Positions 4,504-34,045 of a stretch of 64,000 nt of DNA are shown here, piece by piece (the first letter of the stretch is position 1; each line of letters begins with the position of its first letter). Below the pieces are notes generated by a model that searched no databases, was not told the origin of the DNA, and saw only the letters and a list, made by a program, of their open reading frames with translations. Source of the stretch: a virus; IMG/VR virus record IMGVR_UViG_3300018080_000167, positions 10,774 to 74,773 of that record. The stretch is one strand, 5' to 3'. The translations under genes and the position numbers were made by a program.

Positions 4504-4506
4504 TTT

Positions 4507-4746: not shown

Positions 4747-4816
4747 AAGATACTCCTTTTGTTCAAAAAATTGATTTGTTTATTTTCACATTTAAAAAGT
4801 AGATATTTTAATATTT

Positions 4817-5750: not shown

Positions 5751-5759
5751 ATTTTCTCC

Positions 5760-6780: not shown

Positions 6781-7654
6781 GAAATTTAATATTCATATCC
6801 TCGATATTATTTAAAAAATTGGCTGCTTCGTCCAACCCTTTATTTCTGAAGCAATATGCCAAATTAGCAATGTCTTTTACCAGACAGGAGCCAGAATACC
6901 CTAGACAACCATCTGGGCCTGGAACTTGCGAGTGACTCATGCCTATTCTTTTGTCTTCTCCAACACCCCTTCTGACAATGTTGTAATTAACGTTATGTTG
7001 TTTACACAAGGCATAAATCATATTTGAAAAATTAATTTTTGTTGCAAGAAAACTATTCGATGCCAATTTAATCATTTCTGCTTCTGTCGTATTACAAATA
7101 ACTGCTATGCAATCGCTTTCTTGTATAGAGTCAATTACATAGAAGGCTTTTGTGTCTGACTCTTTCCATTCACTAATCAAACTATTGGTGCCAAATACAA
7201 TTCTATCTGGATTTTTAAGATCAGAAAGTGGAGTAGCCTCCGTTAAGAACTCAGGCGCGAACATGATATTAAGATTCGCAAAAGTATCATTGAGCGTTTT
7301 CGTATAGCCGACAGGGACGGTAGACTTAATAATAACCGCTTGATCTTTATTTTTTGTGAGTTTAGAAATATTGTATATTGTTTCATATACAAGCGAAACA
7401 TCACATTGAAAACAATGTCCTTCTGTGCTATAACCAGTAGGTGGAGTTGGAACGCACACTAAAATAACATCGCAATTTGCTACCTCTTCCAACGGTTTTA
7501 CTGCCGGTAGTGCCCACGATTCTGGCCAATTTAAAAAATATTTTTTATTTGTGTCATATACTTTTACGTTGAAGCCCAAATCCATTAGTGCTTTTGCGTG
7601 TGTACTACCGACAAAACCTGCCCCCACAGTTCCTACGTTCTTTACATTAATCAT
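6731..7654 (-). CDS. ugd: UDP-glucose/GDP-mannose dehydrogenase family protein
   Basis: GAGFVG Rossmann, CVPTP, IKSTVPVG, PEFL.E, EAEMIKLASNSFLATKI, GYSGSCLVKD. Confidence 0.9.
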   Translation of the reverse strand: MINVKNVGTVGAGFVGSTHAKALMDLGFNVKVYDTNKKYFLNWPESWALPAVKPLEEVANCDVILVCVPTPPTGYSTEGHCFQCDVSLVYETIYNISKLTKNKDQAVIIKSTVPVGYTKTLNDTFANLNIMFAPEFLTEATPLSDLKNPDRIVFGTNSLISEWKESDTKAFYVIDSIQESDCIAVICNTTEAEMIKLASNSFLATKINFSNMIYALCKQHNVNYNIVRRGVGEDKRIGMSHSQVPGPDGCLGYSGSCLVKDIANLAYCFRNKGLDEAANFLNNIEDMNIKFRGNTDWINNEYRKKDN

Positions 7655-8337
7655 TAATATTCCTCCAAATTAAAAAAGTTATTATTCTTTTTCACCAATA
7701 TTCTCATATCAAAATATAAATTTTTAATCTTCTCTTCTTTAAGACGATACAAAAATTTACACCAATTAATTTTATCTGTGTCAAATATGTCTGCTATTTT
7801 TAAAAAATCAGAACGATTCATAACAAAGGCATATACACCGTCTATACCGCTCAAACTCTCTATTTTTTCCAATACGCTGTCCCAAGTAGCGAAGTATTTA
7901 TTTTCGTCTATTTGCCAGTGTATCGGGCGAATAACCGTGCCATTTTCTACGTTCCTCATTGTTTGTATAAACTTAGGTGATATTACAATATTCGGATTTA
8001 GCCATAATACCTTCTTTACATTAACATACTCCTTTATAATTCTTGCAATATTTTTGTATATATTATTACAATTTAATATATTTACATTGCGGAATACACT
8101 TTTATTTTCATCAATAAAATTTAGTTCTTTATCTGTAATTTTGCCTATTACACATATCTCTATATTTTTTGGGCTTTCGAGCTGCCTGTTAAGAACAAAG
8201 TGTATTAAATTATATGCATTTTCTATAGAATTATTATTTGGAATAACAATTATCATCTTTTCTTTATTTGGAGAGCTGTTCACTTCAGTTCTCTTTGCTC
8301 TTTTAATGTCTCTTATTTCTTTTCGCGTTAAAAACAT
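7654..8337 (-). CDS. Hypothetical protein, possible degenerate GT-A glycosyltransferase
   Basis: IIVIP.NN, VLWLNPNIVISP, FVMNRSDFLKI pattern; adjacent to ugd; DxD not intact. Confidence 0.4.
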   Translation of the reverse strand: MFLTRKEIRDIKRAKRTEVNSSPNKEKMIIVIPNNNSIENAYNLIHFVLNRQLESPKNIEICVIGKITDKELNFIDENKSVFRNVNILNCNNIYKNIARIIKEYVNVKKVLWLNPNIVISPKFIQTMRNVENGTVIRPIHWQIDENKYFATWDSVLEKIESLSGIDGVYAFVMNRSDFLKIADIFDTDKINWCKFLYRLKEEKIKNLYFDMRILVKKNNNFFNLEEY

Positions 8338-8669
8338 TAGTTTAATCCTATACGGAAATCACCGAAATCTATATCTTTGAATGGATTTTCTTCTCCACCC
8401 TGTCCAAACTTAATAGTTACACCGCCCTCTTCTATTTCTTCGAACGTTAGTTGCTCTGTAAGACGATTAAAAATATCTATTGTCTTTTCGACATGAGAGT
8501 TTGCAGCCTCGGCAATCATTTCTTCTGTAAATATGCCATCAATATCGCTAAACTCTATTTCTTTTTTAAGAAGTCCAAAAATTATATCTGGATTATTTGT
8601 TACAGCACTTAAAACACCTATAAAACCATAAAAGTGACTGTTTGGCAATTCCAATGTTTTTTTATTCAC
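8337..8669 (-). CDS. Hypothetical acidic protein
   Basis: ORF in operon. Confidence 0.6.
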   Translation of the reverse strand: MNKKTLELPNSHFYGFIGVLSAVTNNPDIIFGLLKKEIEFSDIDGIFTEEMIAEAANSHVEKTIDIFNRLTEQLTFEEIEEGGVTIKFGQGGEENPFKDIDFGDFRIGLN

Positions 8670-8677
8670 GTTGCCCC

Positions 8678-9034
8678 CTATTTGTTAAGCCTTGTGTATT
8701 TTTCCCACTTTGTTTGATTTTTGCGCCGCCATTCTTTCATATGCTTTGTACCTTTCCTGCGTTCTTTTAGCACCTCTTCTTTCAAATCTTTATTCTTTTT
8801 TACTTTATCTCTTTTTTTTTCAAAATTATTTATTTCCTCATCGCTGCCCTCCATTGTGTTCGCTCTTTTGATGTCTTTCCCTGGCCAGCTACCTCTTAAT
8901 ATAAAATTTGTGCTAAATTCTCTAGACATCTTTTCGCCACATTCGCACTTAACTACGCTTGGTGGCCCCTCTTGAATCGGTGCGACAATCTGTTTTTCAT
9001 TACCGCATTTTTCGCAAAAGAAATCGTAATGCAT
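8678..9034 (-). CDS. FmdB-family zinc-ribbon protein
   Basis: YDFFCEKCG....CECG..MSREFS..F.L.G..W. Confidence 0.75.
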   Translation of the reverse strand: MHYDFFCEKCGNEKQIVAPIQEGPPSVVKCECGEKMSREFSTNFILRGSWPGKDIKRANTMEGSDEEINNFEKKRDKVKKNKDLKEEVLKERRKGTKHMKEWRRKNQTKWEKYTRLNK

Positions 9035-9036
9035 TT

Positions 9037-9864
9037 TTATTTTACTCCAAAAAATTTAGTTTTTCCGCCAAGCCGCCACGCAAGCTTGACTCCATCTAAA
9101 GAATACCCATTGTTTTTGAATATTACCATTCGTAATCCTGCTTGAATAAGCATTCTAGCACACACAACGCAGGGGGGGGCGTTTATATAAGCAATACCGT
9201 CTTCTAAATCGTTCTTCGATGCTTTTGCTATCATATTCCACTCTGCGTGCATACAAAGTCCTCGTTCAAAGGTAGTGCCAGAAACAACACCTTGTCTTTC
9301 GCACACACAATCAAGCCTTGTACCTATTGGATGTCCATTTCTACCACTATATTTTATATCTCCATCCTTTACTAAAACGCATCCCATTTGTGCTCTCTTG
9401 CATTTTGATAATTGTCCAGCATTATTAGCTGCATCAATAAAATGCCTTACTTGATAATGATCATAAATTATTTTTTTCATCTTAAAATTTTGAATATTGT
9501 GCATATAAAAAAAATGAGCAAAAACATCCATAGGAATAATAACAGACATTTGATGCCCTTTTTCAATTTTTCCCGCGCAAGAAATTTCTCTTTTCAACAT
9601 AGCAGCAAGCTGCATAGAAAACTGTGTAACATATGTGCTTTGGGTCAAAGATAAAATTACTTGATCATTAAAGACAGTACACGAGAAACATTCAAGAACA
9701 GCCTTCATTACATTATTAAGCTGATCTCCATAAGAAATATTGGCAATATAATCTACCCCAGTAGTTTCTAATGTTTTCTTAAGAATTTTTTTTGTTGTAT
9801 CACTTTTTATTTGTGAAAAGTCTAATTTTTTGCACAAATATTTTATAAAGTAATATGGAAACAT
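9037..9864 (-). CDS. dCMP deaminase with N-terminal extension
   Basis: S.CKRAQMGCVLVKD, CMHAEWN, PCVVCARMLIQAG. Confidence 0.85.
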   Translation of the reverse strand: MFPYYFIKYLCKKLDFSQIKSDTTKKILKKTLETTGVDYIANISYGDQLNNVMKAVLECFSCTVFNDQVILSLTQSTYVTQFSMQLAAMLKREISCAGKIEKGHQMSVIIPMDVFAHFFYMHNIQNFKMKKIIYDHYQVRHFIDAANNAGQLSKCKRAQMGCVLVKDGDIKYSGRNGHPIGTRLDCVCERQGVVSGTTFERGLCMHAEWNMIAKASKNDLEDGIAYINAPPCVVCARMLIQAGLRMVIFKNNGYSLDGVKLAWRLGGKTKFFGVK

Positions 9865-10814
9865 TATTCGCTTCCTAACTTTTTGTAAACAAAACTTTTA
9901 AGAAAATAATTTTTTGTATCTGACTTTTCTCCAGCATTAAGTTTATCAATTTCATCTGTCATAATACTCATTTGTGTATCTGCCATATCTGCAGCGTGAA
10001 TAATAATTGCTTCTGGAATTGCTGGAGACACACATGACCCCCAACCCTTATCAACAGAACCATGATGTGACAGAATACAATGCTTCAAAAGCATAATCTC
10101 TTCATCTGTAATTTTAATATCACATTCTTTACACAAATTGGAAATAATTTCAGAACCCATTGCAATATGGTCCATAAGAGATCCAGCCTTCGTGTATTCA
10201 ATAGTAAATTTATTAAAAATATAGCTTTTAATTTTTCCTATGTCATGTAAAAGAGAAGCAGTAACAACCAAGTCTTTGTCTATAATGGTAGAATAATTCT
10301 TTGTTAGTCCTATTGCATTATATGTAACATTAATTGTGTGCTTTATAAGTCCATTCCTATATGCTTCATGAACCTTCGACGCTGCTGGTGCCTGAAAGAT
10401 TTCTTTCCCATACTTTTTAAATGCACATACCAAAAGTTTTTTATAGTTCTTATTGTTAATATCAGCTATCAAATGATTGACTTCTTCTTTATATGCAGCT
10501 ATCTCTTCGTCTGGAAGATGTGGCATCAATTCATCCATTATTTCTTCCGATGGCTCCACCTTTTTATATCCAGAGACATGAAGAGATTTACTGCCATTAT
10601 AAAGCTTCACCTGACCTTTCACTTCTAAAACATCATTCTGTTCAATTTTACATTTTGATAATGAGCTGTCCCACAAAAAACACGAACAACTCTGTCCATT
10701 CTTACACAAAGTAAATTGTACAAAACTTTTATTTCTCTTAGTTTTTCTTTCTGATACGCTCTCTATAAAACCAGTAACGGTAGCAACAGAGCCGCCATTG
10801 TAAATTGATATCAT
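9864..10814 (-). CDS. YhaM/Cbf1-like OB-fold + HD 3'-5' exonuclease
   Basis: N-terminal OB fold, PAASKVHEAY..GL..HT, LHDIGK, ILSHHG, PEA.IIH.AD. Confidence 0.88.
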   Translation of the reverse strand: MISIYNGGSVATVTGFIESVSERKTKRNKSFVQFTLCKNGQSCSCFLWDSSLSKCKIEQNDVLEVKGQVKLYNGSKSLHVSGYKKVEPSEEIMDELMPHLPDEEIAAYKEEVNHLIADINNKNYKKLLVCAFKKYGKEIFQAPAASKVHEAYRNGLIKHTINVTYNAIGLTKNYSTIIDKDLVVTASLLHDIGKIKSYIFNKFTIEYTKAGSLMDHIAMGSEIISNLCKECDIKITDEEIMLLKHCILSHHGSVDKGWGSCVSPAIPEAIIIHAADMADTQMSIMTDEIDKLNAGEKSDTKNYFLKSFVYKKLGSE

Positions 10815-16411: not shown

Positions 16412-16653
16412 TATACACTTCTCCTAACAAGTTTCAAAATTTTGGCTTTCAACTTTAGAGTCTTGTCCTTTGTAACAATGTCGCTTGTGTGAAAAAGATT
16501 ATTTTGCAACATTGCAAGTTTAAGCTGCGCAATGCTTACGGCAGCGTCCATCTTTGTTGTTGATATCATCATTTCTCCTTCATATTCTTTAATAAATGTT
16601 TTTACTTTTTGTAATTCAATTTCAGCTTGTTTAGCCAATTGTTTAAATGTCAT
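16411..16653 (-). CDS. Hypothetical protein
   Basis: Coupled ORF. Confidence 0.55.
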   Translation of the reverse strand: MTFKQLAKQAEIELQKVKTFIKEYEGEMMISTTKMDAAVSIAQLKLAMLQNNLFHTSDIVTKDKTLKLKAKILKLVRRSV

Positions 16654-17176
16654 TTTTTATTTGCCTACGTATGTTTCCTTTTGCCCTCTGTACTTTTAAA
16701 TATGCTGTAGATTTACTTTTGTTTATTTTTTTAGCAATTTCTCCATATTTGTATCCCAATAGTCTGAACAACATTGTATTATCGCTGTCATGTTTTGCAA
16801 GAAGCTCTCTAACATATATTTCTTCAGCTATATTGTCGTGCTGTGAAGGCATTGGAACATTAGCCGAATGTAATGTTTTGCTACAATCTGGTATTTCATC
16901 CTTGTATTTCTTCCAGTATTGATAATTCGGAAACTTTAAATAATGCCCCTGGGTGCATAACATTTGTTTAATTGAACCAATTGCCCTTTTCATCATTGTT
17001 ACTATTATTTGTTTGTCTTCAAGTTCAATATTTTTCTTTCTCAAACTTTCATATGTTTCTATGGCTGCGAGGCGCTGCTCTTGCAAACAATCTTGATCAT
17101 TGAAGCGCTCACATTCATATAGGTTTGTATGGAAAAATCTATCAAGCTGTTCTAAATAGTGTTCAATTGGTTTCAT
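16643..17176 (-). CDS. Sigma-factor-like protein (region-4 HTH)
   Basis: DCLQEQRLAAIE (region 2-like); GYKYGEIAKKINKSKSTAYLKVQRAK; AGGAGG RBS before MKPIEH. Confidence 0.6.
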   Translation of the reverse strand: MKPIEHYLEQLDRFFHTNLYECERFNDQDCLQEQRLAAIETYESLRKKNIELEDKQIIVTMMKRAIGSIKQMLCTQGHYLKFPNYQYWKKYKDEIPDCSKTLHSANVPMPSQHDNIAEEIYVRELLAKHDSDNTMLFRLLGYKYGEIAKKINKSKSTAYLKVQRAKGNIRRQIKNDI

Positions 17177-22033: not shown

Positions 22034-22547
22034 AATTTCCTCCTAAATGGTATTTTAATAAGAAAAAAAGCACTTTTTGTTTTTTAATAATACTACAAAT
22101 AAAAAGAAGAATAAGAGAGAAAGGAGTAGAAAGGGGAAGGGAGTTAGGAAAAGGTTGGTGGGTTGGGTGTTTCCTATTGTGAGATGCGCCAAAAAAATGA
22201 TAATTCTCTAACGATTTTTCCGTTTTGCTTCCGCCATTAACGTTGCCGCCCCTGCTATTACTCTTAGTAATTGCTGTTTTTAGCCAAAAAATTAACTTTT
22301 TTTTAAAAGGAGCCATTATTATTTTTATTCTCCCGACTTTTAATAATATTATTATAACGAATATTATCTAACGTATTATTGCCAAAAAAATCCTTTTTTA
22401 CATTAATAACTTCACTAATAATAGCATTTTTACTGCTTTTTTTATGTCGCCATTATTATCTAAGGTATTACGGGTGTGCCCTTATTATACAAATCGATAC
22501 AAATCGTTGTTTTTGAGCCAAAAATGGCACTTTCATTTAACACTTCT

Positions 22548-22698
22548 AACCGTCATATGACACTTTCCAACCGTCATATGACACTTTCTGAACCGTCGTG
22601 TGACATTTTCCAACCGTCATATGACACTTTCTGAACCGTCGTGTGACACTTTCCAACCGTCATATGACACTTTCTGAACCGTCGTATGACGACTTCTC
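22548..22698. repeat. Iteron-like tandem array, 7 units of 21/22 bp (43-bp higher-order period)
   Basis: AACCGTCRTRTGACACTTTC(C/TG) at 22548, 22569, 22591, 22612, 22634, 22655, 22677. Confidence 0.9.
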
Positions 22699-22703
22699 AA
22701 TTA

Positions 22704-23015
22704 TTATGTGAACGGAATAACATCGTCATCACAACCATTTATACAAGTATCAATATCATCGATTTTTTCTTTTAATATTTTATATTGTTTTTCTACATCG
22801 TCTAATCTGATATTAGCCGCATTCAGCGCTTGCAATACCTCTTCTTGGAATTTATTAAAATCATTGGCTTTAATATAATTGCCAGTATGAGTTACATTAT
22901 TAACAGTATTATTTTTTCTATAATAATATTTTCTATGATTATCACAACAAAATTTTTGTTGTTTTCCAAACAAAGGTTTTCCGCAATATTCACATTTTTT
23001 AGTATATTCTACCAT
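22704..23015 (-). CDS. Zinc-finger plus coiled-coil protein
   Basis: CEYCGK...KFCCDNHRK. Confidence 0.6.
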   Translation of the reverse strand: MVEYTKKCEYCGKPLFGKQQKFCCDNHRKYYYRKNNTVNNVTHTGNYIKANDFNKFQEEVLQALNAANIRLDDVEKQYKILKEKIDDIDTCINGCDDDVIPFT

Positions 23016-23165
23016 ATATTACCTCGATATTAAAAATTATCTTTTTTTAATGGTTTCCAACAAATCGCTGTTTTAATTTCTTCAAGCTCCTTTTTAATTT
23101 CTATATTTTCCTTTTCAAGTGCTGAAATTTTTGCCAACAGCATTTCAATTATTTCTTCAAACATT

Positions 23166-23393
23166 TTATTTTTCTTCTTCCAGACTATCGAGCCTTTCTT
23201 CGACATCACAGATGCTATTTTCAAGCTCTGCGAGCCCTTCACTTAGCTCAAGTATTGCGGGTGATTGTTCAAGAGTGTCAAGTCGATCATCCAGCCGAAT
23301 TGCAAAAGATTTAATAATTTCGAGCTTTTCTTCCAGCCTATCTATTTTTTCTTGCATTTCCTGTATCTCGACAACCATTTTGTATTCCATCAT
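23166..23393 (-). CDS. Acidic coiled-coil protein
   Basis: Heptad pattern. Confidence 0.55.
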   Translation of the reverse strand: MMEYKMVVEIQEMQEKIDRLEEKLEIIKSFAIRLDDRLDTLEQSPAILELSEGLAELENSICDVEERLDSLEEEK

Positions 23394-23575
23394 TATTCCT
23401 TTTCGTTAAGTTGCCTTTTAAGCTCTGCAATTTCTTGCTCAAGTTTATATACTTTTGATTTTGTATCGTTCATAATATTTATTATTGCCAACCATATTTG
23501 TGAAAAACTATCTGTAATTGCATTGCCTACTTCATAATCTTTATTAGCTCTTGGTACAGTTACTTTATTAAACAT
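23393..23575 (-). CDS. Small coiled-coil protein
   Basis: TAATG coupling. Confidence 0.5.
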   Translation of the reverse strand: MFNKVTVPRANKDYEVGNAITDSFSQIWLAIINIMNDTKSKVYKLEQEIAELKRQLNEKE

Positions 23576-23590
23576 AATGGGTCCTTTCTG

Positions 23591-23851
23591 CTACTTTTTT
23601 GCAGCCCTAAAAAAGTCATATAATGATTCGTGTTTATCTTTATAAAAATTTTCACCATCATCAAAGAGTGGCTCAGAAGCCTCACAGCCGTCAATTAGCT
23701 CATTTTCTTTTATCGTCTCTTCCAGTACAACATCAAACCTTTTAAGCCAATAACGCGCCTCTCCTACCGTTACACCCAAACTTTTAGCCATCTCTCGGAC
23801 ATTAGAACTTGCTTCCGCCAATTCTTTAATAGTTTTTTTGTTGATATCCAT
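23591..23851 (-). CDS. HTH DNA-binding protein
   Basis: NVREMAKSLGVTVGEARYWLKRF; AGGAG RBS after class B promoter. Confidence 0.6.
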   Translation of the reverse strand: MDINKKTIKELAEASSNVREMAKSLGVTVGEARYWLKRFDVVLEETIKENELIDGCEASEPLFDDGENFYKDKHESLYDFFRAAKK

Positions 23852-23866
23852 AATAATACTCCTTTC

Positions 23867-23903
23867 TACATATAATATCTACTATATTGTAATTTTTTCC
23901 TAA
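23867..23903 (-). promoter_or_regulatory. Class B phage promoter
   Basis: TAGGAA..AGTAGATATTATATGTAG. Confidence 0.7.
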
Positions 23904-24099
23904 TGAATTTGAAATAATTTTATTTTCTCTATTGACAGAGGGGTTCCCTTTTCTCCCTTCCCATAATTTAAGTTTATGGCGGCGGCTACCCCTTCAGGGT
24001 AAGGAGGGGGGAGCTATGCCTAACCATTATTTTTAGCAAAAAAAGCCTAAATAAAAAAGGCGCTCGCCGATTATGAAAAAAGAGACATTTTTTGGAAAA

Positions 24100-24460
24100 C
24101 CTATTGCTCATCGCTTCTGTAGAGCGTCGAAAGCACGGTGGCATATTATATTTTCCTACATGTTCGGGTGCTGGTTGCAAAGGGAACCAGGGAAGCAGAG
24201 CCAGCGCGCACCGTGAGAGGCTCACTAAAATCGATGGTCTCCCGCCACTCGTGGCGATATATGCCTCCCGCTGTTTCCAGCTACTAAGCAATATATTCTT
24301 TTCCATCGACACCTCTCTTTTTCCCTAAAGCTATTAACTTAAGGTACTTACTAATTAGGTAGCTTTCAAACCTTTGGTTTTTTTATTAAAGAGAGTAACC
24401 TGTCTGAAATCTCTCTAATTTAACAGCAAAGCGATTCGCTGTAAAGAGAACCTTTCTCTA
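24100..24460 (-). ncRNA. Candidate large structured non-coding RNA
   Basis: Nested helices, a GCTG-GAAA-CAGC tetraloop on the minus strand, elevated GC, directly downstream of a class B promoter. Confidence 0.5.
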
Positions 24461-24496
24461 TTATATAATATCTACTAAAATGCCTCTTTTATTCAA
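24461..24496 (-). promoter_or_regulatory. Class B phage promoter
   Basis: TTGAAT-N14-AGTAGATATTATATAA. Confidence 0.7.
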
Positions 24497-24796
24497 TATT
24501 TTTTAAAATTTATTTTTTTTAATGAAAATATTATAGAATTTATTATAAAATGTATTACTGCAAATATTAAAGGGGGGAGGGTTAAAGTGTAATTATAAAA
24601 GAAGTTATTAAGGATTGCCAATTTGGCAATTTCATCTCCAGTCGCTCTCGCTCTCTGAACACAAAAAGGTAATTATTATAAAAGTTATTAAAGTAAGTAT
24701 TACTGTATAACAAAAAATAAAGAAGGCGACGATTATGCCGCCCTCAATATTTTCTTGATCTTAAAAAACTATTATTATTTTGGATCAATAGAATTA

Positions 24797-25018
24797 TTAT
24801 TCTTGCTGCACCCCGTTAAAACCATTATAAATATGAACGCCCTCCTCTGTAGGTTCCCACTTCCTATAAACCTCATAGGATTGATTGCCATAGCGCACAC
24901 TAGTAAAGCGTGCTACAAGCCGCCATTCGGATGCATAATGGTAATGATCAGCTAACCAAAGCAGCATTTTTTTGTCTCTTGGCTCTGCATATTTTTCAAT
25001 TTCTTCTTTAATTTTCAT
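24797..25018 (-). CDS. Hypothetical protein
   Basis: AGGAGAG RBS. Confidence 0.6.
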   Translation of the reverse strand: MKIKEEIEKYAEPRDKKMLLWLADHYHYASEWRLVARFTSVRYGNQSYEVYRKWEPTEEGVHIYNGFNGVQQE

Positions 25019-25030
25019 AGTGTGGCTCTC

Positions 25031-25333
25031 CTAACTACAATAAAGATAAAGTTTTACACAATCTTCACCATTTTCATCTTCAAAAAGTTTAACAAGATGT
25101 CCGCTAAAAAAAGAATCTGCGTCATACCCATCAAATGGCTTCATCCAATCTGGGGGATTTGGATTATAGACGGGATTGTGAACAGCCATAAATTCGCTTA
25201 AAAAGTATTTTTCGCCGTTGTGCTCAAAGTATTGCTCCAGCTCTCCGTTTTCTTTGTCGTCTTCCCATTCTGGGATTCCGTAATTTAATTCTTTGATCCC
25301 TAAAAATTTAATATCAGGTTTATCGCACTCCAT
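25031..25333 (-). CDS. Acidic hypothetical protein
   Basis: GGAGG RBS before MECDKPD; YFEHNGEKYFLSEFM..FDGY.ADSFFSG.LVK. Confidence 0.65.
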   Translation of the reverse strand: MECDKPDIKFLGIKELNYGIPEWEDDKENGELEQYFEHNGEKYFLSEFMAVHNPVYNPNPPDWMKPFDGYDADSFFSGHLVKLFEDENGEDCVKLYLYCS

Positions 25334-25334
25334 T

Positions 25335-25511
25335 TTAATCCTCCACTTCTTCGAGTTTAAAATCGTCGCAATCAAGATAATCGTCCGCATTGTCAATATG
25401 CTCTTCATAGTCAAGCTGTTCCATCTTTGCCTTCGCTTCTTTTTCACTATCTGCTTTTACCTTGAAATATTCACGCACTGTAATTTTTTGACTAAAAATG
25501 TAAGTTTTCAT
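25335..25511 (-). CDS. Small acidic protein (58 aa)
   Basis: MKTYIFSQKITVREYFKVKADSEKEAK; GGAGG RBS. Confidence 0.55.
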   Translation of the reverse strand: MKTYIFSQKITVREYFKVKADSEKEAKAKMEQLDYEEHIDNADDYLDCDDFKLEEVED

Positions 25512-25512
25512 T

Positions 25513-25677
25513 TCATCCTCCTATAAAGTCATAAAGTTTTTCAAGTGTTTGAACAGCTCCAAAGGAATAATATTCAGCTTTCATATAACTATTATATATA
25601 AAAGTAAAATATTTGTTCCCGCCTTCATGCATAATTCTGAAATTGTAACCGTTTTGACTCCCTGTTAATGTTTCCAT
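25513..25677 (-). CDS. Small hypothetical protein (54 aa)
   Basis: AGGAGG RBS after class A promoter. Confidence 0.5.
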   Translation of the reverse strand: METLTGSQNGYNFRIMHEGGNKYFTFIYNSYMKAEYYSFGAVQTLEKLYDFIGG

Positions 25678-25688
25678 TTTTTTACCTC

Positions 25689-25730
25689 CTTACATCCTTC
25701 ACACGTAGGATTGAAAAAATAGAATGAAAA
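25689..25730 (-). promoter_or_regulatory. Class A phage promoter (leftward of divergent pair)
   Basis: TTTTCATTCTATTTTTTCAATCCTACGTGTGAAGGATGTAAG. Confidence 0.7.
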
Positions 25731-25923
25731 ATATATTTTTTTACTTATACATCTATATATAATAAACAACATCCTATGTATGGCAGTGTACATTTTTTGT
25801 ACATCGACATAAGATGTACATCATTAAAAGATACACTAATACGTTCCGTTATATCTTTACAATTAAACCTGTATTTAATATTTCCATCAATAAATTAGCT
25901 ATTAAAATTGAAAGCTGAAAAAA

Positions 25924-25964
25924 TTTTAATAAAAAAATTCAATCCGGTGTGCGGTAGATGTAAG
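25924..25964 (+). promoter_or_regulatory. Class A phage promoter (rightward of divergent pair)
   Basis: TTTTAATAAAAAAATTCAATCCGGTGTGCGGTAGATGTAAG. Confidence 0.7.
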
Positions 25965-26010
25965 CAAAAATTTAAATTTTACAAAAAACTATTATTAAAG
26001 GAGAGGCAAG

Positions 26011-26565
26011 ATGAACTACGAAAAAGAGTCTGGAAGTTTGTATGATAAAAGAGCAAGGTGGGCTTCAAGGCTCCGCAGTCTGCGCAACGAACTGAATGAT
26101 ACAGCATCAGAGCTTGGAATAGATGATTATTTTTATAATCTGTTCAACGGGGCTGGTGATGTAATCCATAGTCTTATGTGCGAATTTATTGATTCTTTGA
26201 AGGAGGATGAAATGAAAGTTGACATTGAAGACACTTTACAGAAGAATGTTGATGAGGCAATTGAAAATTTGGAAGAGCTTATTGAAGAAACATGGGAAGA
26301 CGAGGAAGAAAGAGAAGAGTTGACGGCATTTGAGATTCAACAAAAACTCGATTATGATGGTAGGATTCACGAAATTATTGATAGTGCAGTACCTATTTAT
26401 ACAAAAGAGATCAAGGATACATGGTATTTACACGAACACAAATTACTTGAGGCATACGAAAATGAAGGACTTGGGAAAAACCCCCACGAGAACGATGGGA
26501 TGGTTGCAATCTTTTGTTACATTTCACAAAAGGTTTTTGAATGGCTTTTCCAAGAGTACAATTGA
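26011..26565 (+). CDS. Acidic protein with Ocr (T7 gp0.3)-like DNA-mimic C-terminal domain
   Basis: IHEIIDSAVPIYTKEI resembles Ocr IHMAADNAVPHYYADI; internal AGGAGG-ATG start at 26212. Confidence 0.6.
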   Translation: MNYEKESGSLYDKRARWASRLRSLRNELNDTASELGIDDYFYNLFNGAGDVIHSLMCEFIDSLKEDEMKVDIEDTLQKNVDEAIENLEELIEETWEDEEEREELTAFEIQQKLDYDGRIHEIIDSAVPIYTKEIKDTWYLHEHKLLEAYENEGLGKNPHENDGMVAIFCYISQKVFEWLFQEYN

Positions 26566-26576
26566 TAGGAGGAAAA

Positions 26577-26777
26577 ATGAAAACAGCAAATAAAAAATAT
26601 CGTTATTCGCCATCTTTTTTTGATAGTATTATTGCACCACCAGACGGAATAAACGATGGAGATATTGTGACAGTTATTAATGATGCATCTTTGCCAAAGT
26701 CAAAAGGGAATTCTTTTGTGACAAAAGATGGTGGACCTGTGCGAATGGTAAACGATAATTCATTAGAAAAGGTTTAG
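26577..26777 (+). CDS. Hypothetical protein
   Basis: AGGAGG RBS; MKTANKKY. Confidence 0.55.
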   Translation: MKTANKKYRYSPSFFDSIIAPPDGINDGDIVTVINDASLPKSKGNSFVTKDGGPVRMVNDNSLEKV

Positions 26778-26786
26778 GGAGAAAAG

Positions 26787-27317
26787 ATGAGAACAAAACA
26801 ATATAATGTTTATAAATTTAACGAACTCTCAAAAGAGGCGCAAGAACAAGCAATATATAATCTCCAAGATATCAATGTAGCGCATAATTGGTGGAGCTAT
26901 ATCTACGGAATGTTTCAACAGTGCGGAATAAAAATAAAATCTTTTGATATATATAGATACCAAATAGAAATTGAATTTATCGAAGACATTGAGGATGTTT
27001 TTAGTAAACTTATTAAAGACTTTGCCCTTTATCCTGCGGAACATATTGCGTCACGATATCAACTTATGATTGAACGTAAAAAACAAGAGGCATTGAATAA
27101 TGAAGGCGTTGACCCATCTGATTTCAGTGTAGAATGTGAAGAAACTTATGATGATATTTGTGATAGTTTTAAGCACAAAATAAAAAATGAAATTTTTGAC
27201 ACATTAAAAAAAGATTACGATTATTTAACAAGCGAAAAAAGCATTGTCGAAACAATCGAACTTAATGACTACGATTTTCTAGATAATGGAGAGTTAGACC
27301 CTTTTCCAACAAGCTAA
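26787..27317 (+). CDS. Acidic conserved phage early protein
   Basis: VYKFNELSKEAQE.A...YDYLTSE.SI.ETIE.NDYDF..NG. Confidence 0.7.
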   Translation: MRTKQYNVYKFNELSKEAQEQAIYNLQDINVAHNWWSYIYGMFQQCGIKIKSFDIYRYQIEIEFIEDIEDVFSKLIKDFALYPAEHIASRYQLMIERKKQEALNNEGVDPSDFSVECEETYDDICDSFKHKIKNEIFDTLKKDYDYLTSEKSIVETIELNDYDFLDNGELDPFPTS

Positions 27318-27487
27318 CCAACGGGAGCAAAATCGCTCCCAAAGTAATTAATACGTGCAGTAATAGGTTTCGGCTTTCTCTGAGGTATTGGCGCGTGTAT
27401 TAAGGGCTTTATTACTTCTGATCTTTAAAATATTATTGTAAGTATTAAAAAAGGTATTATTGTTTAAAAACCAGGAAAATTTTTAAA

Positions 27488-27530
27488 TTTTAATATTCAA
27501 TTTTTCAATCCATAGTGCAGTAGATGTCAG
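27488..27530 (+). promoter_or_regulatory. Class A phage promoter
   Basis: TTTTAATATTCAATTTTTCAATCCATAGTGCAGTAGATGTCAG. Confidence 0.75.
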
Positions 27531-27557
27531 CAAACAATCGAATAAAAGGAGAATAAA

Positions 27558-27854
27558 ATGACACTTAACGATTTTTTAAACAGTGATTATTTTCAGAATT
27601 ACGAACACGATTTTTTCAATACTAATATCTATTTTATGTATGATAACAAGACAATAGATAGAATATTTGAAGCAAGAGAAGATGGATGTGATGGTAGGAC
27701 ACACTTTGAAGTAATAGACTTGTGGAGAGATTCAATTGATTGTGCTTGGCACGATGATGTAGTTACTGAAAAAGAATATGATGATGTTGTTGCAGAGATT
27801 AACAAGTGTGAATTGTGGCATTGTGAAAACGGTTCTTTGTTTCAAACAATTTAA
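27558..27854 (+). CDS. Small acidic protein
   Basis: AGGAG RBS; D/E-rich. Confidence 0.65.
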   Translation: MTLNDFLNSDYFQNYEHDFFNTNIYFMYDNKTIDRIFEAREDGCDGRTHFEVIDLWRDSIDCAWHDDVVTEKEYDDVVAEINKCELWHCENGSLFQTI

Positions 27855-27857
27855 TAA

Positions 27858-27900
27858 TTTTAATCTTCAATTTTTCAATCCAGTGTGCAGTAGATGTGAG
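27858..27900 (+). promoter_or_regulatory. Class A phage promoter
   Basis: TTTTAATCTTCAATTTTTCAATCCAGTGTGCAGTAGATGTGAG. Confidence 0.75.
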
Positions 27901-27929
27901 GGGAAAACAATAACAATTGGGAGGTTATT

Positions 27930-28214
27930 ATGTACGATGAAAATGAATTTGAAAAAATGGAGTGTTTGTTAGATGATTGTCGTGGGATTTATATTCCGCA
28001 AGCCTTTATTGAGTGTTATAGTTATGAACAATGGGGCATTTCCGAAGAAAATGCTACAATATTACTTAAAGGTCCTGAACCTGAAAATGAGCTTTACTGG
28101 GAAACTTGGGATGAGGTAATGCGCGATGCCGAATATACTGATGAGTTCGGTAACGTTTGGAACTTGTTTCAAGATGGCGACCTTTTCGCTGTTGTTTACA
28201 AAGAGTGTGAATAA
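27930..28214 (+). CDS. Small acidic protein
   Basis: RGIYIPQAF..GPE..E.YWETWDEV...L.QDGDLFA; GGAGG RBS. Confidence 0.7.
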   Translation: MYDENEFEKMECLLDDCRGIYIPQAFIECYSYEQWGISEENATILLKGPEPENELYWETWDEVMRDAEYTDEFGNVWNLFQDGDLFAVVYKECE

Positions 28215-28233
28215 ATCCTCCTAATCTTATAAT

Positions 28234-28266
28234 AGGACCCTGGATTGTTTCTGGGGTCCTTTTTTT
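28234..28266 (+). terminator. Rho-independent terminator
   Basis: AGGACCCTGG..CTGGGGTCCT followed by T-run. Confidence 0.75.
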
Positions 28267-28450
28267 ATTAAAGGAGTTATTATGGAATATATTATTGATT
28301 TTTGTTTCACATTAAAAACAAATAAAGATTTTTCTGATATTACCACAAAAGAATTTATCAATGCAGCAAAAAAACGCCTTGATGATGTGGAAATAGCAGA
28401 TGATATTGAGGCATTTGGTATTGTTGATGTTATTAGTGAGGAGGAATAAA

Positions 28451-28633
28451 ATGTTTGAGCGAATAAAATTTTGGAAAAGCGATCGTGTTTGGTATCGCAA
28501 GTGTGATGATAGATTCATCCTTACCACTACATTTGATTATGGTAGAAACATCGGATGTTGTGCAAGAAATTATTTTATTGCAACGATGCGTAATGCAGCA
28601 AAGGGAAGAAAAGTAATCGTGAGGCGTACATGA
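28451..28633 (+). CDS. Hypothetical protein
   Basis: GAGGA RBS; MFERIKFW. Confidence 0.5.
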   Translation: MFERIKFWKSDRVWYRKCDDRFILTTTFDYGRNIGCCARNYFIATMRNAAKGRKVIVRRT

Positions 28634-28833
28634 TTATTATTATACTTACTATTGGACTTATTATCTTATTGTATTACGGAAGTAAGCTTGATGTAGAATA
28701 TCGTAATAATGTACGTATTAAGGAGGAAAAGAAAAGACAAAAAAGATTTATTGATATGCAGAGTACACATCATCAAGGTGGTGGTTCAAATCAATATATT
28801 GGCACTATTTATAATTCTTGTGATATTTTTTGA
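28630..28833 (+). CDS. Small membrane-anchored protein
   Basis: N-terminal TM; ATGA coupling. Confidence 0.55.
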   Translation: MIIIILTIGLIILLYYGSKLDVEYRNNVRIKEEKKRQKRFIDMQSTHHQGGGSNQYIGTIYNSCDIF

Positions 28834-28875
28834 TTTTAATATTCAATTTTTCAATCCAGCGTGTTATAGGTGAGA
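28834..28875 (+). promoter_or_regulatory. Class A phage promoter
   Basis: TTTTAATATTCAATTTTTCAATCCAGCGTGTTATAGGTGAG. Confidence 0.7.
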
Positions 28876-28904
28876 GGAAACAAAATTTTTATTAGGAGGT
28901 AAAA

Positions 28905-29102
28905 ATGCTTTTTCCATTTGCTGAATACGAGAAACGCGCTAAGAAAATGACAATCGCTGAACTGTTCTATGCCAAAAGAGATGCCTATCGTGCAGCACAA
29001 TCTTTGAAGGGCGCAGATGTTCGAGGCAAGGATGAGAACTGGTATATGGATGAGTGTCATACCTATGGCGATGAAATAAGGCGGCGTCAAAAAAACGTAT
29101 AA
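28905..29102 (+). CDS. Hypothetical protein
   Basis: AGGAGG RBS; ELFYAKRDA..A...WYMDECHTY.DEIRRR. Confidence 0.65.
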   Translation: MLFPFAEYEKRAKKMTIAELFYAKRDAYRAAQSLKGADVRGKDENWYMDECHTYGDEIRRRQKNV

Positions 29103-29359
29103 TATAATTCACACAAAGGAGGAAACCTTATGTATTATATTATTGACTTTATTATGACGTTGCACGAAAAAATGGTTGAAAGAAAATTTCAAAAGAAGAA
29201 AGATAAAATTCGCAAAAAATGCAGAAAAAATCAGGTTACAAAGTCACGTTTCAAAGATAGTTCTATTGTTTAAGAAATTAAAAACTTTAACTTGGTGGGG
29301 ATGGTGCGTTACCATCCCCTTTTTTTATTATTGAAGTTATTAAAGTAAAAAAAATAAAA

Positions 29360-29400
29360 TTTTAATATTCAATTTTTCAATCCAACGAGTAGTAAATGAG
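29360..29400 (+). promoter_or_regulatory. Class A phage promoter
   Basis: TTTTAATATTCAATTTTTCAATCCAACGAGTAGTAAATGAG. Confidence 0.7.
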
Positions 29401-29430
29401 AGGGAAACAAAGATTATTAGGAGGTTGAAA

Positions 29431-29670
29431 ATGTTAAAGATTCACGCAAGTACAGCAAACACTATTCAGGCCTGGATTGATGATAATCTGGTGCTTTTCA
29501 GTTACAACACTCCTGTTGCGATTAGCACACCAACGGGATTTGTAAAGACTTCCAAAAAATGGTCCGTTACGACATCGAAACATATCAATAAGTTCTTGAA
29601 CGGACATCACGCAGAGGAGGTGAGTCAGGAAGAAATCGAAAAAATTGTGACAAAAAATACTGTTCTTTAA
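29431..29670 (+). CDS. Conserved small phage protein
   Basis: LFSYNTPVA...KKWSVTTSKHINKFL. Confidence 0.7.
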   Translation: MLKIHASTANTIQAWIDDNLVLFSYNTPVAISTPTGFVKTSKKWSVTTSKHINKFLNGHHAEEVSQEEIEKIVTKNTVL

Positions 29671-29761
29671 TCTTAATTTCGTTTGTGAATACGGTTGTAC
29701 TGTATTCTTTTTTTGCATAAGCCCCATCGTTTGGTGGGGCATTTTTATTTTTGGAGGATTT

Positions 29762-30139
29762 ATGGATATTAAAGAATTTATTAAGAAACACAATATTACA
29801 ATTGAAAGCAAAAAAACATATCAGAATCTTAATATGTCATCTTTCACAGATGCTGATCACTGGAAATGCACATTGAAGATGGATGATGCCGAACATAATT
29901 TTTTCTTTTCTAAAGGATATGGACACAAGGGGAAGGAACCTACTGCTGATGAGGTTATCGAGTGTTTCGTTTCAGATTTAAGCTTTGACGATTTGTCATT
30001 TGATGAATTTTGCGATGAGCTTGGACTTGATGCGTACAGAGAAAACAGAAGAACATATAATGCAGTTCAAAAACAAAATTATCACATTAAAATTCTTTTT
30101 GAAGATTGTTTTGATGAATTACTAAGTCTTGAATTTTAA
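29762..30139 (+). CDS. Acidic hypothetical protein
   Basis: HWKCTL..FFSKGYGH..EPTADEVI.C..SD...FDEFCDELG. Confidence 0.7.
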   Translation: MDIKEFIKKHNITIESKKTYQNLNMSSFTDADHWKCTLKMDDAEHNFFFSKGYGHKGKEPTADEVIECFVSDLSFDDLSFDEFCDELGLDAYRENRRTYNAVQKQNYHIKILFEDCFDELLSLEF

Positions 30140-30145
30140 AAATTT

Positions 30146-30175
30146 ATGCCTTGCCTAATGGTAGGGCATTTTTTT
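30146..30175 (+). terminator. Rho-independent terminator
   Basis: ATGCCTTGCC..GGTAGGGCAT followed by T-run. Confidence 0.7.
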
Positions 30176-30289
30176 ATGTCCATAAAACATTATTATTGTA
30201 GATATTAGTGCAACGTATTAGTGTAAAGCCACTAAGAAAAAATAGGTAGGTTTTCTATCGTATGATGCAAAAAAATTACATTTTTTTAA

Positions 30290-30328
30290 TTGAATGTATT
30301 AGTGCGATTAGTAGATATTAAATGTAGG
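30290..30328 (+). promoter_or_regulatory. Class B phage promoter
   Basis: TTGAAT-N14-AGTAGATATTAAATGTAG. Confidence 0.7.
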
Positions 30329-30335
30329 TGATATT

Positions 30336-30842
30336 ATGAAAAGAAAAGAGCATAAAATTATTGACTGCATTGAATGCAAACATTGTTGCAAGTGTAATAC
30401 TTGGAAACCGCTTGATGCATTTTATAAACGCAAACGTAATTTGGATGGGTTGAAGGTTCAGTGTAAAGATTGTGAGGAAGAATACCAAAAAGAGCTTCGG
30501 AAAACAGACGAATGGAAAGAATACCAAAGAGAATACAAACAGACAGAAAAATACAAAAAATACAAAAGAGAATATCAAATAGAATATCAAAGAGAATATA
30601 TATCAAGAGAAGATGTTAAAGAAAAAAAGAATGTTAGAACAAAAACAAGCCGTTTATTAAAGAAATTATTACCACAATGGAAACGTAAATATATACTATG
30701 TGAGATATGCGGCAAGGTTCCCTATGAGGAATTTCATCACTTTGTGTATAGTGCAGATAAGCTGTTGTGCGGACTTTTTGTGTGCGGGGCGTGTCATACG
30801 AGTTACATAATAAATCTTCTGATCAAGCCCCATAGGGCTTAA
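30336..30842 (+). CDS. HNH-like zinc-finger endonuclease
   Basis: CCKC..WKPL..FY....DGL..QCKDC; CEICG....FHH.....VCGACH. Confidence 0.6.
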   Translation: MKRKEHKIIDCIECKHCCKCNTWKPLDAFYKRKRNLDGLKVQCKDCEEEYQKELRKTDEWKEYQREYKQTEKYKKYKREYQIEYQREYISREDVKEKKNVRTKTSRLLKKLLPQWKRKYILCEICGKVPYEEFHHFVYSADKLLCGLFVCGACHTSYIINLLIKPHRA

Positions 30843-31177
30843 AAATAAACCACTTTTTCAATCATATCTAATAAGCAAAATCAACTTTTATATCTTATGC
30901 TGTTCGCTCCCTAATAACAATAATGCGTTTACTAAAGAAGATATTATTGTATCACCATAGGGTAATATATTAAAGCAGTTATTAAAAAAGGTATTATTGC
31001 GACATCTGGATTGACATCCTGGGACAGATCCGCTCTCATCACTTAATGGTGTATGTATTATCGTTTATATTATTGCGCTTTCTGATTTATTAAGGAACGT
31101 ATTAGTGCAAGGCGGGAGGGGTATTAAAGAAGGTATTACTGTATTATAAAGATTAAAAAAATATCAGAAAACATCTC

Positions 31178-31193
31178 TGGCACAAAATTTGCA
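31178..31193 (+). promoter_or_regulatory. sigma54 (-24/-12)-like site
   Basis: TGGCAC-AAAAT-TTGCA. Confidence 0.45.
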
Positions 31194-31336
31194 AAACATC
31201 ATATAGGTGACCCATTTTTACCTACGTAATAAATACATACTTTGCAGATTAAAATTAAGAAATGTTGTAGCTTGGCATAGAAAATGCATCTAAGGATGGT
31301 AAGATTAAAATAATGTAATATAATAGACCAAAAAAA

Positions 31337-31357
31337 TAGGCGGGTTAGACCCGCCTA
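31337..31357. terminator. Bidirectional terminator hairpin
   Basis: TAGGCGGG-TTAGA-CCCGCCTA between convergent blocks. Confidence 0.7.
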
Positions 31358-31360
31358 ATA

Positions 31361-31534
31361 TTAAACTTCCGCAACCTGAACAGCTTGGATAAAGTTCTCA
31401 TTTGAACGCATTGTTTTCTTTGCCTTTGTTATTGCCTCCCCTGCATAGTTTGCTTGTACGTATGCTTTATTACAAAAGGTACATTCTGGACATACTTTGT
31501 AAGAAGAAATGAATTCAACAAAATATTCTTTCAT
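31361..31534 (-). CDS. Small hypothetical protein
   Basis: AGGAGG RBS before MKEYFVEF. Confidence 0.55.
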   Translation of the reverse strand: MKEYFVEFISSYKVCPECTFCNKAYVQANYAGEAITKAKKTMRSNENFIQAVQVAEV

Positions 31535-31869
31535 TTTGCCTCCTAGTGTGTTAAAGAGTACCATACGCCGAAACCGCCACGAGGATAAATGCAGCGATTT
31601 TTTATTGCACACTTGATTTCAATTCCGTAATAATTTACTTTTCTTTTGAAAATCATTTTTTTAATTATCTTTAACATTATATCCCCTTAAGAATAAAACC
31701 CCCTCTCTTTTTTTTACCTATGCTTCCAAAAGGTCCATAGGATCAAAGTAATTGAAACCGTAAAGAGTGAATCTTTTGTCACGATACCCCTCATTGATTA
31801 GTGCTTCCGCATATTTCAAGAGACTTTCTTTTTCCATTTTTCCTCCTATTAAAAAAGGGTTTACTTCAT

Positions 31870-31911
31870 TCTCATTCACAGCACATCGGATTGAAAAAAT
31901 AGAGATTAAAA
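31870..31911 (-). promoter_or_regulatory. Class A phage promoter
   Basis: TTTTAATCTCTATTTTTTCAATCCGATGTGCTGTGAATGAG. Confidence 0.7.
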
Positions 31912-31929
31912 TCCCCTCTCTAAAAAGAT

Positions 31930-32232
31930 TTAATCTTCGTGTTTTTCTCTGTTTTTTTCATAACATCTTTTTGCGACCTCTTTAAAGATGTTGTTTCCAT
32001 TATCTTCCGCGCGATAATCTGTGATGTGCGTGATAAGACTATTTGTGCTTTCTTCGTCAAGACATTCGCTTTGAAGCCGACCGCGACCGGCTACCCTGAT
32101 TCTACGCTCTTTTGTGCCGCTTGCCTTGCGTGAATTGTAAATTGACCAACAAGTTGGACAATTGCCTCTCGGCTTCCTTAATCCTTTATAACGAGGATGG
32201 TTAGGACATGTTACTTGAAATAACGCTTTCAT
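31930..32232 (-). CDS. CxxHP-YKG zinc-motif protein
   Basis: CPNHPRYKGLRKPRGNCPTCW; AGGAGG RBS. Confidence 0.65.
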   Translation of the reverse strand: MKALFQVTCPNHPRYKGLRKPRGNCPTCWSIYNSRKASGTKERRIRVAGRGRLQSECLDEESTNSLITHITDYRAEDNGNNIFKEVAKRCYEKNREKHED

Positions 32233-32269
32233 AACGCCTCCTATTAAAAAATGTTTTATTGTTTGTAGC

Positions 32270-32313
32270 TCTCACATTGACTGCACATGGGATTGAAAAA
32301 ATCCGATGAAAAA
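32270..32313 (-). promoter_or_regulatory. Class A phage promoter
   Basis: TTTTCATCGGATTTTTTCAATCCCATGTGCAGTCAATGTGAG. Confidence 0.7.
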
Positions 32314-32435
32314 TCTAAAAAATTTTTTGTCTAAGATTTTGACAGGTAAATTTTACATAGGTAGAAATTACATAGGTAAAAAATCCATACTATAGAATTA
32401 TTACCTATGGTATTATTGCCTTGTTGTTGTTCACC

Positions 32436-33636: not shown

Positions 33637-33799
33637 AAAAAAATATATTTTTCAAGGTCGGATAAAACCGACCTTTTTTTGTGCTGAAATAATTATTAAA
33701 ATAAAAAAATATTATTCAATTGGCATAGAATTTTCCACAAAGAGTATATGTAAGGTAGCGGGTAGGGTTCTTGGAATCAAAGGTACTTTATGAAAAACA

Positions 33800-34045
33800 G
33801 GAAAATCGGCGGGGGGTGCCCAAAACAATTGTCCAGCCCCTTTTTTCATTAGGTGGGTAGTTTATATGGGCGGGGGAGGGTTTCTTTTTGATTTTTATTG
33901 AAAAATTATTTTTTTTGGGTTGAGCATTAAATTTTTTCGGGGGGGCTTGTTGAGCATTAATTTTCTGAAGAGTTGGGGGACACGTTGAAAGGATTGGGTA
34001 CTCCAAAATAATTGGGGGACACCCCAAAATAATTGGGAGACATTA
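33800..34045. other. G-run and short-direct-repeat non-coding region, possible genome end or packaging site
   Basis: G5-G8 runs; GTTGAGCATTAA x2, CCAAAATAATTGGG x2, TTGGGGGACAC x2. Confidence 0.35.

Follow-up and report, generated by a model that had tools for sequence, protein, structure and literature searches.

Rows of TATTA boxes at a 12-bp pitch in a small-gene hub of an uncultured phage

Why does a five-letter box, TATTA, recur at exactly 12 bp, and mostly on one strand, in the gaps between genes across about 10 kb of a phage genome? The rows of boxes studied here are located in bases 10774-74773 of the 74.8-kb IMG/VR record IMGVR_UViG_3300018080_000167, which is derived from an uncultured, AT-rich phage (GC content ~33%) and is classed as linear with an estimated completeness of 41%. 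This stretch of 64,000 nucleotides is referred to as the window, and all coordinates are window coordinates unless stated otherwise. An earlier note on the same DNA had listed start positions for the boxes, every one of which was found to be correct, and had proposed a polar protein-loading system for segregation, DNA entry, packaging or early-region silencing. Below, we describe the phasing, anatomy and positions of the rows, and weigh a tentative reading of them as operators of an early-region regulator against its rivals.

Phasing, anatomy and positions of the rows

In the intergenic DNA between 21.5 and 33.2 kb (4121 bp), TATTA was identified 60 times, as compared to 19.3 +/- 4.1 expected from 1000 dinucleotide-preserving shuffles, and 19 pairs of boxes were spaced at distance 12, as compared to 0.08 expected and a maximum of 2 in the shuffles. 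Distances 11 and 13 were represented by one pair each, while the reverse-oriented box, TAATA, was found 31 times with two pairs at distance 12. Across the whole 74.8-kb contig, 25 TATTA pairs were recovered at distance 12 against a mean of 1.6 (maximum 6) in 500 local shuffles, along with nine pairs at distance 24 and zero to four at each remaining distance from 6 to 40, and no other 5-mer had an excess of this kind. The excess over shuffled sequence for which the earlier note had proposed a check was thus present, and chance or base composition was ruled out by the local and dinucleotide shuffles, by all other 5-mers and by the other spacings. A hidden coding function or an alternative genetic code was also ruled out, with many TAA stops in all six frames of the gaps that carry the rows.

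The rows were confined to 22.3-32.4 kb. Genes within this interval contained three more pairs at distance 12, as compared to at most one at most other distances, which amounts to a mild excess, and elsewhere a single such pair was found among 189 coding boxes (~58 kb of coding DNA). In total, ~18 sets of two, three or four boxes were identified, with ~45 boxes in all. The repeat unit is the 8-mer TATTAnnG, followed by four variable bases. The 3' box reads TATTA[T/C/G]TG in 13 of the 15 intergenic rows, usually with G and with AAGG or AACG in front of it and with C/T and then A behind it, while the upstream boxes are typically TATTAAAG, TATTAAAA or TATTATAA; a typical two-box unit is TATTAAAGnAGGTATTAYTG. 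The spacers, described as unrelated in the earlier note, are not entirely so; the box extends to TATTAnnG, and the four bases in front of the 3' box have a preference for AAGG or AACG. Since the rows have only the boxes in common, and no longer flanks, they are not copies of a mobile cassette. The combination of strict spacing, conserved boxes, free spacers, odd as well as even box counts and a strong end box argues for cooperative head-to-tail monomers rather than duplication, in agreement with the earlier description of the boxes as phased, protein-binding direct repeats that are not tandem duplications.

The orientation bias is strong (~15-18 forward rows and 3 reverse rows) but not absolute; the phasing is neither equal on the two strands nor present throughout the contig. 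The earlier statement that the boxes occupy one strand regardless of gene direction holds for the bias and for the five forward rows located among leftward genes (A-D, K), but not for three reversed rows; two of these are exact (22404/22416 and 27349/27361) and one contains a single mismatch (25834-25853), contrary to the claim that TAATA is not phased. The first boxes of the rows in minus-strand gene territory read TATTATA, that is TATAAT on the minus strand, so that binding there would occlude a -10 element. The list in the earlier note was also incomplete, in that it lacked the sets at 28266/78/90, 29138/50, 29767/79 and 30655/67, which are situated over gene starts or within genes. The full set is given below, where class X and class M denote the promoter-like motifs described in the next section.

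22350..22381, plus strand: row A, three boxes (TATTATAA, TATTATCT, TATTATTG), left of an AT-rich stretch and iterons; three degenerate in-phase boxes lie upstream, from 22314
22404..22423, minus strand: row R1, reversed and exact (22404/22416), read on the minus strand as TATTAGTG followed by TATTAATG, with rows A and B on either side
22454..22473, plus strand: row B, two boxes, with the array of 21/22-bp iterons 75 bp downstream
24529..24572, plus strand: row C, four boxes, just downstream of a minus-strand sigma70-like promoter
24674..24705, plus strand: row D, three boxes, the last TATTACTG, upstream of the minus-strand sigma70-like promoter
25834..25853, minus strand: row R3, reversed, two boxes with one mismatch (TATAA, then GTATTAGTG), in a divergent promoter region
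27349..27365, minus strand: row R2, reversed and exact (27349/27361), read on the minus strand as TATTACTG followed by TATTAATT, with row E 20 bp to the right
27386..27417, plus strand: row E, three boxes (a TATTG variant, TATTAAGG and TATTACTT)
27431..27462, plus strand: row F, three boxes, with the 3' box TATTATTG 49 bp upstream of TTCAATCC in the class-X motif of gene 27558
28266..28297, plus strand: row G, three boxes (28266/78/90), 6 bp past the terminator at 28234-28260, over the ribosome-binding site and start codon of gene 28282
29138..29157, plus strand: two-box row (29138/50) at the 5' end of gene 29130-29273
29326..29345, plus strand: row H, two boxes, 7 bp past the terminator at 29297-29319, with TATTATTG 50 bp upstream of TTCAATCC in class X 29376
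29767..29786, plus strand: two-box row (29767/79), 27 bp past the terminator at 29721-29740 and 5 nt beyond the ATG with which gene 29762 starts
30191..30223, plus strand: row I, TATTATTG, TATTAGTG and, after a 13-bp step, TATTAGTG, 22 bp past the terminator at 30146-30169
30655/67: a pair that overlaps a gene start or lies within a gene
30930..31141, plus strand: cluster J, five rows (30930/42; 30968/80/92; 31056/68; 31088/100; 31122/34)
32399..32418, plus strand: row K, two boxes, the last TATTATTG, downstream of the minus-strand class-X motif 32461 and among minus-strand genes

The step of 13 bp in row I is located between 30203 and 30216. At 30297, a lone TATTAGTG directly adjoins the endonuclease gene's class-M motif, and GGAACGTATTAGTG is common to rows R3 and J3. 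The function of the row at 29138 is less certain because the sequence is coding. Cluster J, the densest of the sets, contains 11 boxes in 212 bp and is located in a 518-bp gap between convergent genes in which no credible open reading frame (ORF) was found; it has no neighboring or downstream plus-strand gene and no plus-strand terminator. The predicted RNA fold of 31140-31362 gave a z-score of -2.6, which is largely due to the terminator hairpin and is therefore not evidence for an RNA gene, and neither tRNAs nor Rfam RNAs were identified in the gaps that carry rows. Close to row K, the sequence TACATAGGTA is present twice, 15 bp apart (32354, 32369), and an inverted TACCTATG is located within the row itself (region 32354-32409). 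Likewise, the divergent promoter region with row R3 contains three copies of the palindrome TGTACAT (25787, 25798 and 25815; span 25787-25821), which are possibly a separate operator.

Genes and signals around the rows

Genes are directed leftward up to position 25677 and rightward from 26011, with a small leftward island at 31361-32232. The left arm contains genes for helicase/primase, dCMP deaminase, thymidylate synthase and sugar-nucleotide enzymes together with two tRNAs, while two DNA methylases, RtcB, ribonucleotide reductase, a sigma-like protein, terminase, portal and structural proteins are encoded by the right arm. The 22-33 kb between the arms represent a hub of small orphan and anti-restriction-like genes, including one with a weak Ocr-like match, and are probably the early or anti-defense region of the phage. 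The genes and signals that bear on the interpretation of the rows are as follows:

16643-17176: sigma-like gene with a weak Sigma70 region 4 match and a match to PHROG 1740, 'sigma factor' (5e-07)
49067-49702: sigma-like gene, Sigma70 region 2 (25.7 bits)
23591..23851, minus strand: 86-amino-acid orphan gene with an N-terminal helix-turn-helix (HTH) and an acidic tail, without homologs, downstream of the sigma70-like promoter 24592..24621
26787-27317: 176-amino-acid protein of a widespread family with no known function, with relatives at 30-41% identity in >280 metagenome loci
30336-30842: Cys-rich endonuclease VII/HNH-like gene (PHROG 2340, 1e-12), which contains an internal repeat; the densest cluster of boxes follows immediately to its right
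22548..22690: seven 21/22-bp iterons, CCGTCATATGAC-type or AACCGTCATATGACACTTTCC-type alternating with CGTCGTGTGAC, which adjoin the AT-rich stretch and border the zone with rows
24592..24621, minus strand: putative sigma70-like promoter, TTGGCA-18-TATAAT, with 11 of 12 positions matched, the best match in 20-35 kb
32734 and 32936: sigma70-like promoters, TTGCRC-16-TATAMT
14651, 18918, 20096, 21727, 25715, 25938, 27504, 27874, 28850, 29376, 31895, 32297 and 32461: copies of the class-X motif
13320, 23886, 24479, 30307, 34078 and 42251, and contig positions 472 and 10640 (left of the window): class M, ATTAGTAGATATTATATAT, before replication-type and some early genes
53368, 59294 and 61583: class L, GTATAATTATATAG, before structural genes

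Class X is a 45-bp motif, TTTTAAT..TTCAATCC-N3-GTGCAGTAGATG-GAGAGG, of which ~13 copies were identified, most of them 54-58 bp before start codons; it does not have a sigma70 geometry. These other classes of motifs follow gene direction on both strands, unlike the TATTA rows. The sigma70-like promoter at 24592..24621 is flanked by rows C and D and is directed towards the HTH gene at 23591..23851. A sigma70 promoter formed by the rows on the plus strand was ruled out, as no consistent -10 element was found downstream of the TTG of the 3' box. The geometry of -35 and -10 elements at 16-18 bp was only obtained on the minus strand, where boxes 2 and 4 of row C read TTAATA-17-TATAAT.

A row comes after each of the four plus-strand terminators at 28-30.2 kb, at distances of 6, 7, 27 and 22 bp. 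The iterons are a candidate replication origin, and the leftward gene that adjoins them (22704-23015) encodes a recombinase-type zinc ribbon. A set of genes resembling those for nucleotide-sugar or DNA modification was also identified at contig positions 495-8153 (left of the window) and at window positions 3497-10814, with dCMP deaminase, thymidylate synthase-like, HD phosphohydrolase, UDP-glucose dehydrogenase, epimerase, glycosyltransferase and sulfotransferase members, which suggests a modification of DNA or of nucleotide sugars. If thymine is modified, the T-rich TATTA boxes would be modified as well. To the right of the rows, a gap of 396 bp (33637-34032) contains the GC-rich runs GGCGGGGGGTGCCC and GGGCGGGGGAGGG, but neither an ORF nor an Rfam match.

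A proposed regulator of the early region and its rivals

The reading that we favor, with a probability of roughly 45%, is that the rows are cooperative head-to-tail binding sites of one small early-region regulator, which would probably be phage-encoded and made early in infection. One monomer would bind to each 8-bp box TATTAnnG, with nucleation on the best-conserved 3' box, (G)TATTA[T/C/G]TG, from which the protein would spread head-to-tail across one to three weaker boxes at the fixed 12-bp pitch. The ~18 sets at cassette boundaries, beside promoter-like motifs and the iteron origin, would then constitute one regulon that switches the 10-kb early/anti-defense hub, most likely by shut-off or insulation after the first minutes of infection. 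We infer the binding of a protein, its identity and the direction of regulation from the anatomy of the rows and by analogy. That the rows keep to the small-gene hub, which has the iterons on one side and the long rightward operon on the other, favors a regulator, and the early-region silencing listed among the options of the earlier note is close to this reading.

Phased direct-repeat arrays bound by cooperative regulators are a known kind of element, among which the rows are best filed, as a new variant. The stoperators of phages L5 and Bxb1 are many dispersed, asymmetric intergenic sites with a strong orientation bias that block transcription, and in these respects they resemble the rows; however, they are single 13-bp sites that are oriented with transcription and serve the lysogenic repressor, whereas the sites described here are phased. 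The p6 protein of phi29 has DNA contacts at 12-bp intervals and controls origins as well as early promoters, but it reads bendability, while the rows have a conserved box and no p6-like protein was detected here.

In architecture, the rows resemble the sites of StbA of plasmid R388, a small HTH protein that binds cooperatively, needs at least two adjacent repeats and acts as a global repressor of anti-restriction-type genes; these sites form sets of 2, 3, 5 or 10 direct repeats, each of 9 bp with a spacer of 2 bp, at several leading-region promoters, which are repressed (bioRxiv 10.1101/2022.04.29.490116). Phased sets of 2-5 repeats in the first-expressed region there correspond to rows of 2-4 boxes at ~18 sites here, and the larger split set stbS (2 x 5) to the 11 boxes of cluster J, although a centromere role for cluster J is unsupported. 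The likeness is limited to architecture; the pitch is 11 bp (9 + 2) there and 12 bp (8 + 4) here, the repeats differ in sequence, and R388 is a plasmid and not a phage. BldC and Gp36 of phage D29 bind variable numbers of direct repeats in promoters in a head-to-tail manner (PMC12266134). Like Xis/Cox, these are small, monomeric proteins of the winged-helix type on direct repeats, and Gp36 represses early as well as late genes of its phage (PMC12266134), but the Gp36 repeats are GC-rich with a spacing of N13-19, and no HTH_17/MerR-like protein was found above the cut-off here.

Several observations weigh against an early-region regulator. A simple operator model leaves the bias of 15-18 forward to 3 reverse rows unexplained, and the placement of the rows relative to the promoter-like motifs is uneven, being upstream, downstream or over start codons, with none of these motifs at cluster J. 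In a six-frame search of the 74.8-kb fragment, no OmpR-type, ribbon-helix-helix (RHH) or Xis/HTH_17 protein was recovered above the cut-off. The product of 23591..23851 is a candidate box binder by position only; its HTH matches are weak, and the ESM Atlas gave only sub-threshold, homeodomain-like HTH leads. Moreover, no relative with rows was found among the IMG/VR records and metagenome loci examined.

The search for a binder was otherwise of little help, in that neither a search of PDB sequences with the HTH orphan nor scans of ~30 small early ORFs against Pfam and PHROGs yielded a useful lead. The binder may instead be a host-encoded regulator of the OmpR/PhoB type; PF00486 (Trans_reg_C) had no match on the record, and OmpR/PhoB sites have a pitch of 10-11 bp, as compared to 12 bp here.

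The main rival, which we consider less likely, takes the rows for rightward promoters of a separate, factor-dependent class. The core would be the 3' box (G)TATTAYTG(Y)(A), read by the host RNA polymerase with a phage sigma-like or appropriating factor, while the phased boxes upstream of it would serve for activation or recruitment. Such promoters would be consistent with the strong strand bias, with rows that open plus-strand cassettes straight after terminators and with a 3' box that differs from the upstream boxes, and the phage has genes for at least two sigma-like proteins (49067-49702, 16643-17176) and uses at least three other classes of promoter-like motifs. Transcription from rows A and B would enter the AT-rich stretch and the iterons, as does that from middle promoters at T4 origins. 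On the other hand, there is no conserved element and no -35/-10 geometry at a fixed distance from the 3' box, and three rows (28266, 29138 and 29767) are placed over start codons and can therefore not be promoters of those genes. Also, transcription from rows A-D and K would be antisense to minus-strand genes, rows F, H and I are located upstream of other promoter-like motifs and not in their place, and the five rows of cluster J (212 bp) have neither a plus-strand gene nor a terminator downstream.

A distributed, polar loading system with a 12-bp pitch that serves a whole-genome process, such as replication from the iteron origin, DNA entry or fork and transcription barriers, appears improbable. 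The shared orientation would then encode the direction of the chromosome relative to the iteron origin or to entry, and not gene direction, for example if replication, entry and early transcription were coordinated by the rows as barriers or tracks that depend on orientation. Orientation is indeed largely independent of gene direction, with rows A-D and K forward among minus-strand genes; rows A, R1 and B bracket the AT-rich stretch that adjoins the seven iterons, all remaining rows are on one side of the iterons, and the rows straight after terminators could serve as orientation-dependent roadblocks, like L5 stoperators. Three rows are reversed, however, the rows end at 32.4 kb whereas the genome goes on, and nothing on the fragment ties them to a motor or replisome component. 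The record is moreover an estimated 41% fragment.

We regard a centromere-like site for a TubR- or ParR-type adaptor and a filament motor as very improbable, with cluster J as the main centromere and the small rows as auxiliary sites. The 12-bp pitch, for which the earlier note had drawn the comparison to centromere repeats, does match tubC of pBtoxis, for which seven 12-bp repeats are quoted in the study on StbA (bioRxiv 10.1101/2022.04.29.490116). TubR assembles into a filament or ring on DNA and acts as a repressor of a promoter as well, and tubC is split into blocks (PMC6009700), as are the 11 boxes of cluster J (5 blocks), which also has iterons in its vicinity. Yet tubC is one locus, always directly upstream of tubR-tubZ (PMC6009700), whereas no gene is located downstream of cluster J. 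Searches of the 74.8-kb record, an estimated 41% of the genome, gave no match to tubulin/TubZ (PF00091; the control was matched in 13 of 14 genomes), to ParA-type proteins (PF01656) or to RHH_1, so that the search for TubZ and RHH genes suggested earlier was without result; for ParM (PF06406), the control itself had no match. The lack of a tubulin- or ParA-family gene on the fragment and the arrangement in ~18 small sets, scattered over 10 kb among cassettes, terminators and promoter-like motifs and not in one block, make a centromere unlikely, and the segregation reading of the earlier note is not upheld. Nor were integrase or partition genes found on the fragment, the gene content of which (sigma-like, ribonucleotide reductase and nucleotide-modification genes) resembles that of a large virulent phage.

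A role at the RNA level appears equally improbable. In this view, a translational repressor or an RNA-binding oligomer would recognize UAUUA repeats in rightward transcripts, in the manner of T4 RegA or the gene 32 operator. Besides the strand specificity, only the three rows over ribosome-binding sites or start codons straight after a hairpin (28266, 29138, 29767) fit. Plus-strand RNA is not expected at most rows, which either follow a terminator and precede the next promoter-like motif or are located among minus-strand genes, and reversed rows exist.

Relatives of the phage and meaning of the rows

Known phages are only distantly related to this one; a megablast search against phages gave no match, and the terminase and portal have relatives at 22-29% identity only. 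A 144-kb contig encodes proteins that are identical to those of this phage, and two salt-lake sequencing runs contain 17% and 6% of the words of the stretch. The sequencing-run search also listed a sediment run that is probably the source of the DNA, but no RNA runs containing the sequence. A 301-kb IMG/VR record, which encodes one protein with 51% identity, has no excess of TATTA, and its ends contain no phased motif save an unrelated 9-bp CCTTG repeat in one end stretch. No rows were found in 80 metagenome loci with relatives of 26787-27317 (at most 41% identity). Pattern scans of IMG/VR with a three-box row and with the class-X 16-mer gave single chance matches only, and the IMG/VR loci that are rich in TATTA at 12 bp represent tandem or coding repeats of giant viruses.

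With ~45 boxes and a clear nucleation box, the rows provide a ready bait for a binder hunt among the orphan early genes, and their strong but imperfect polarity makes the distinction between gene regulation and a genome-level direction signal directly testable. If the favored reading is true, the rows would be a natural case of head-to-tail recognition at an unusual 12-bp pitch, which is mainly known from TubR/tubC and phi29 p6. A protein that binds to them would represent the central switch of this early anti-defense hub in an uncultured lineage of large phages without close relatives.

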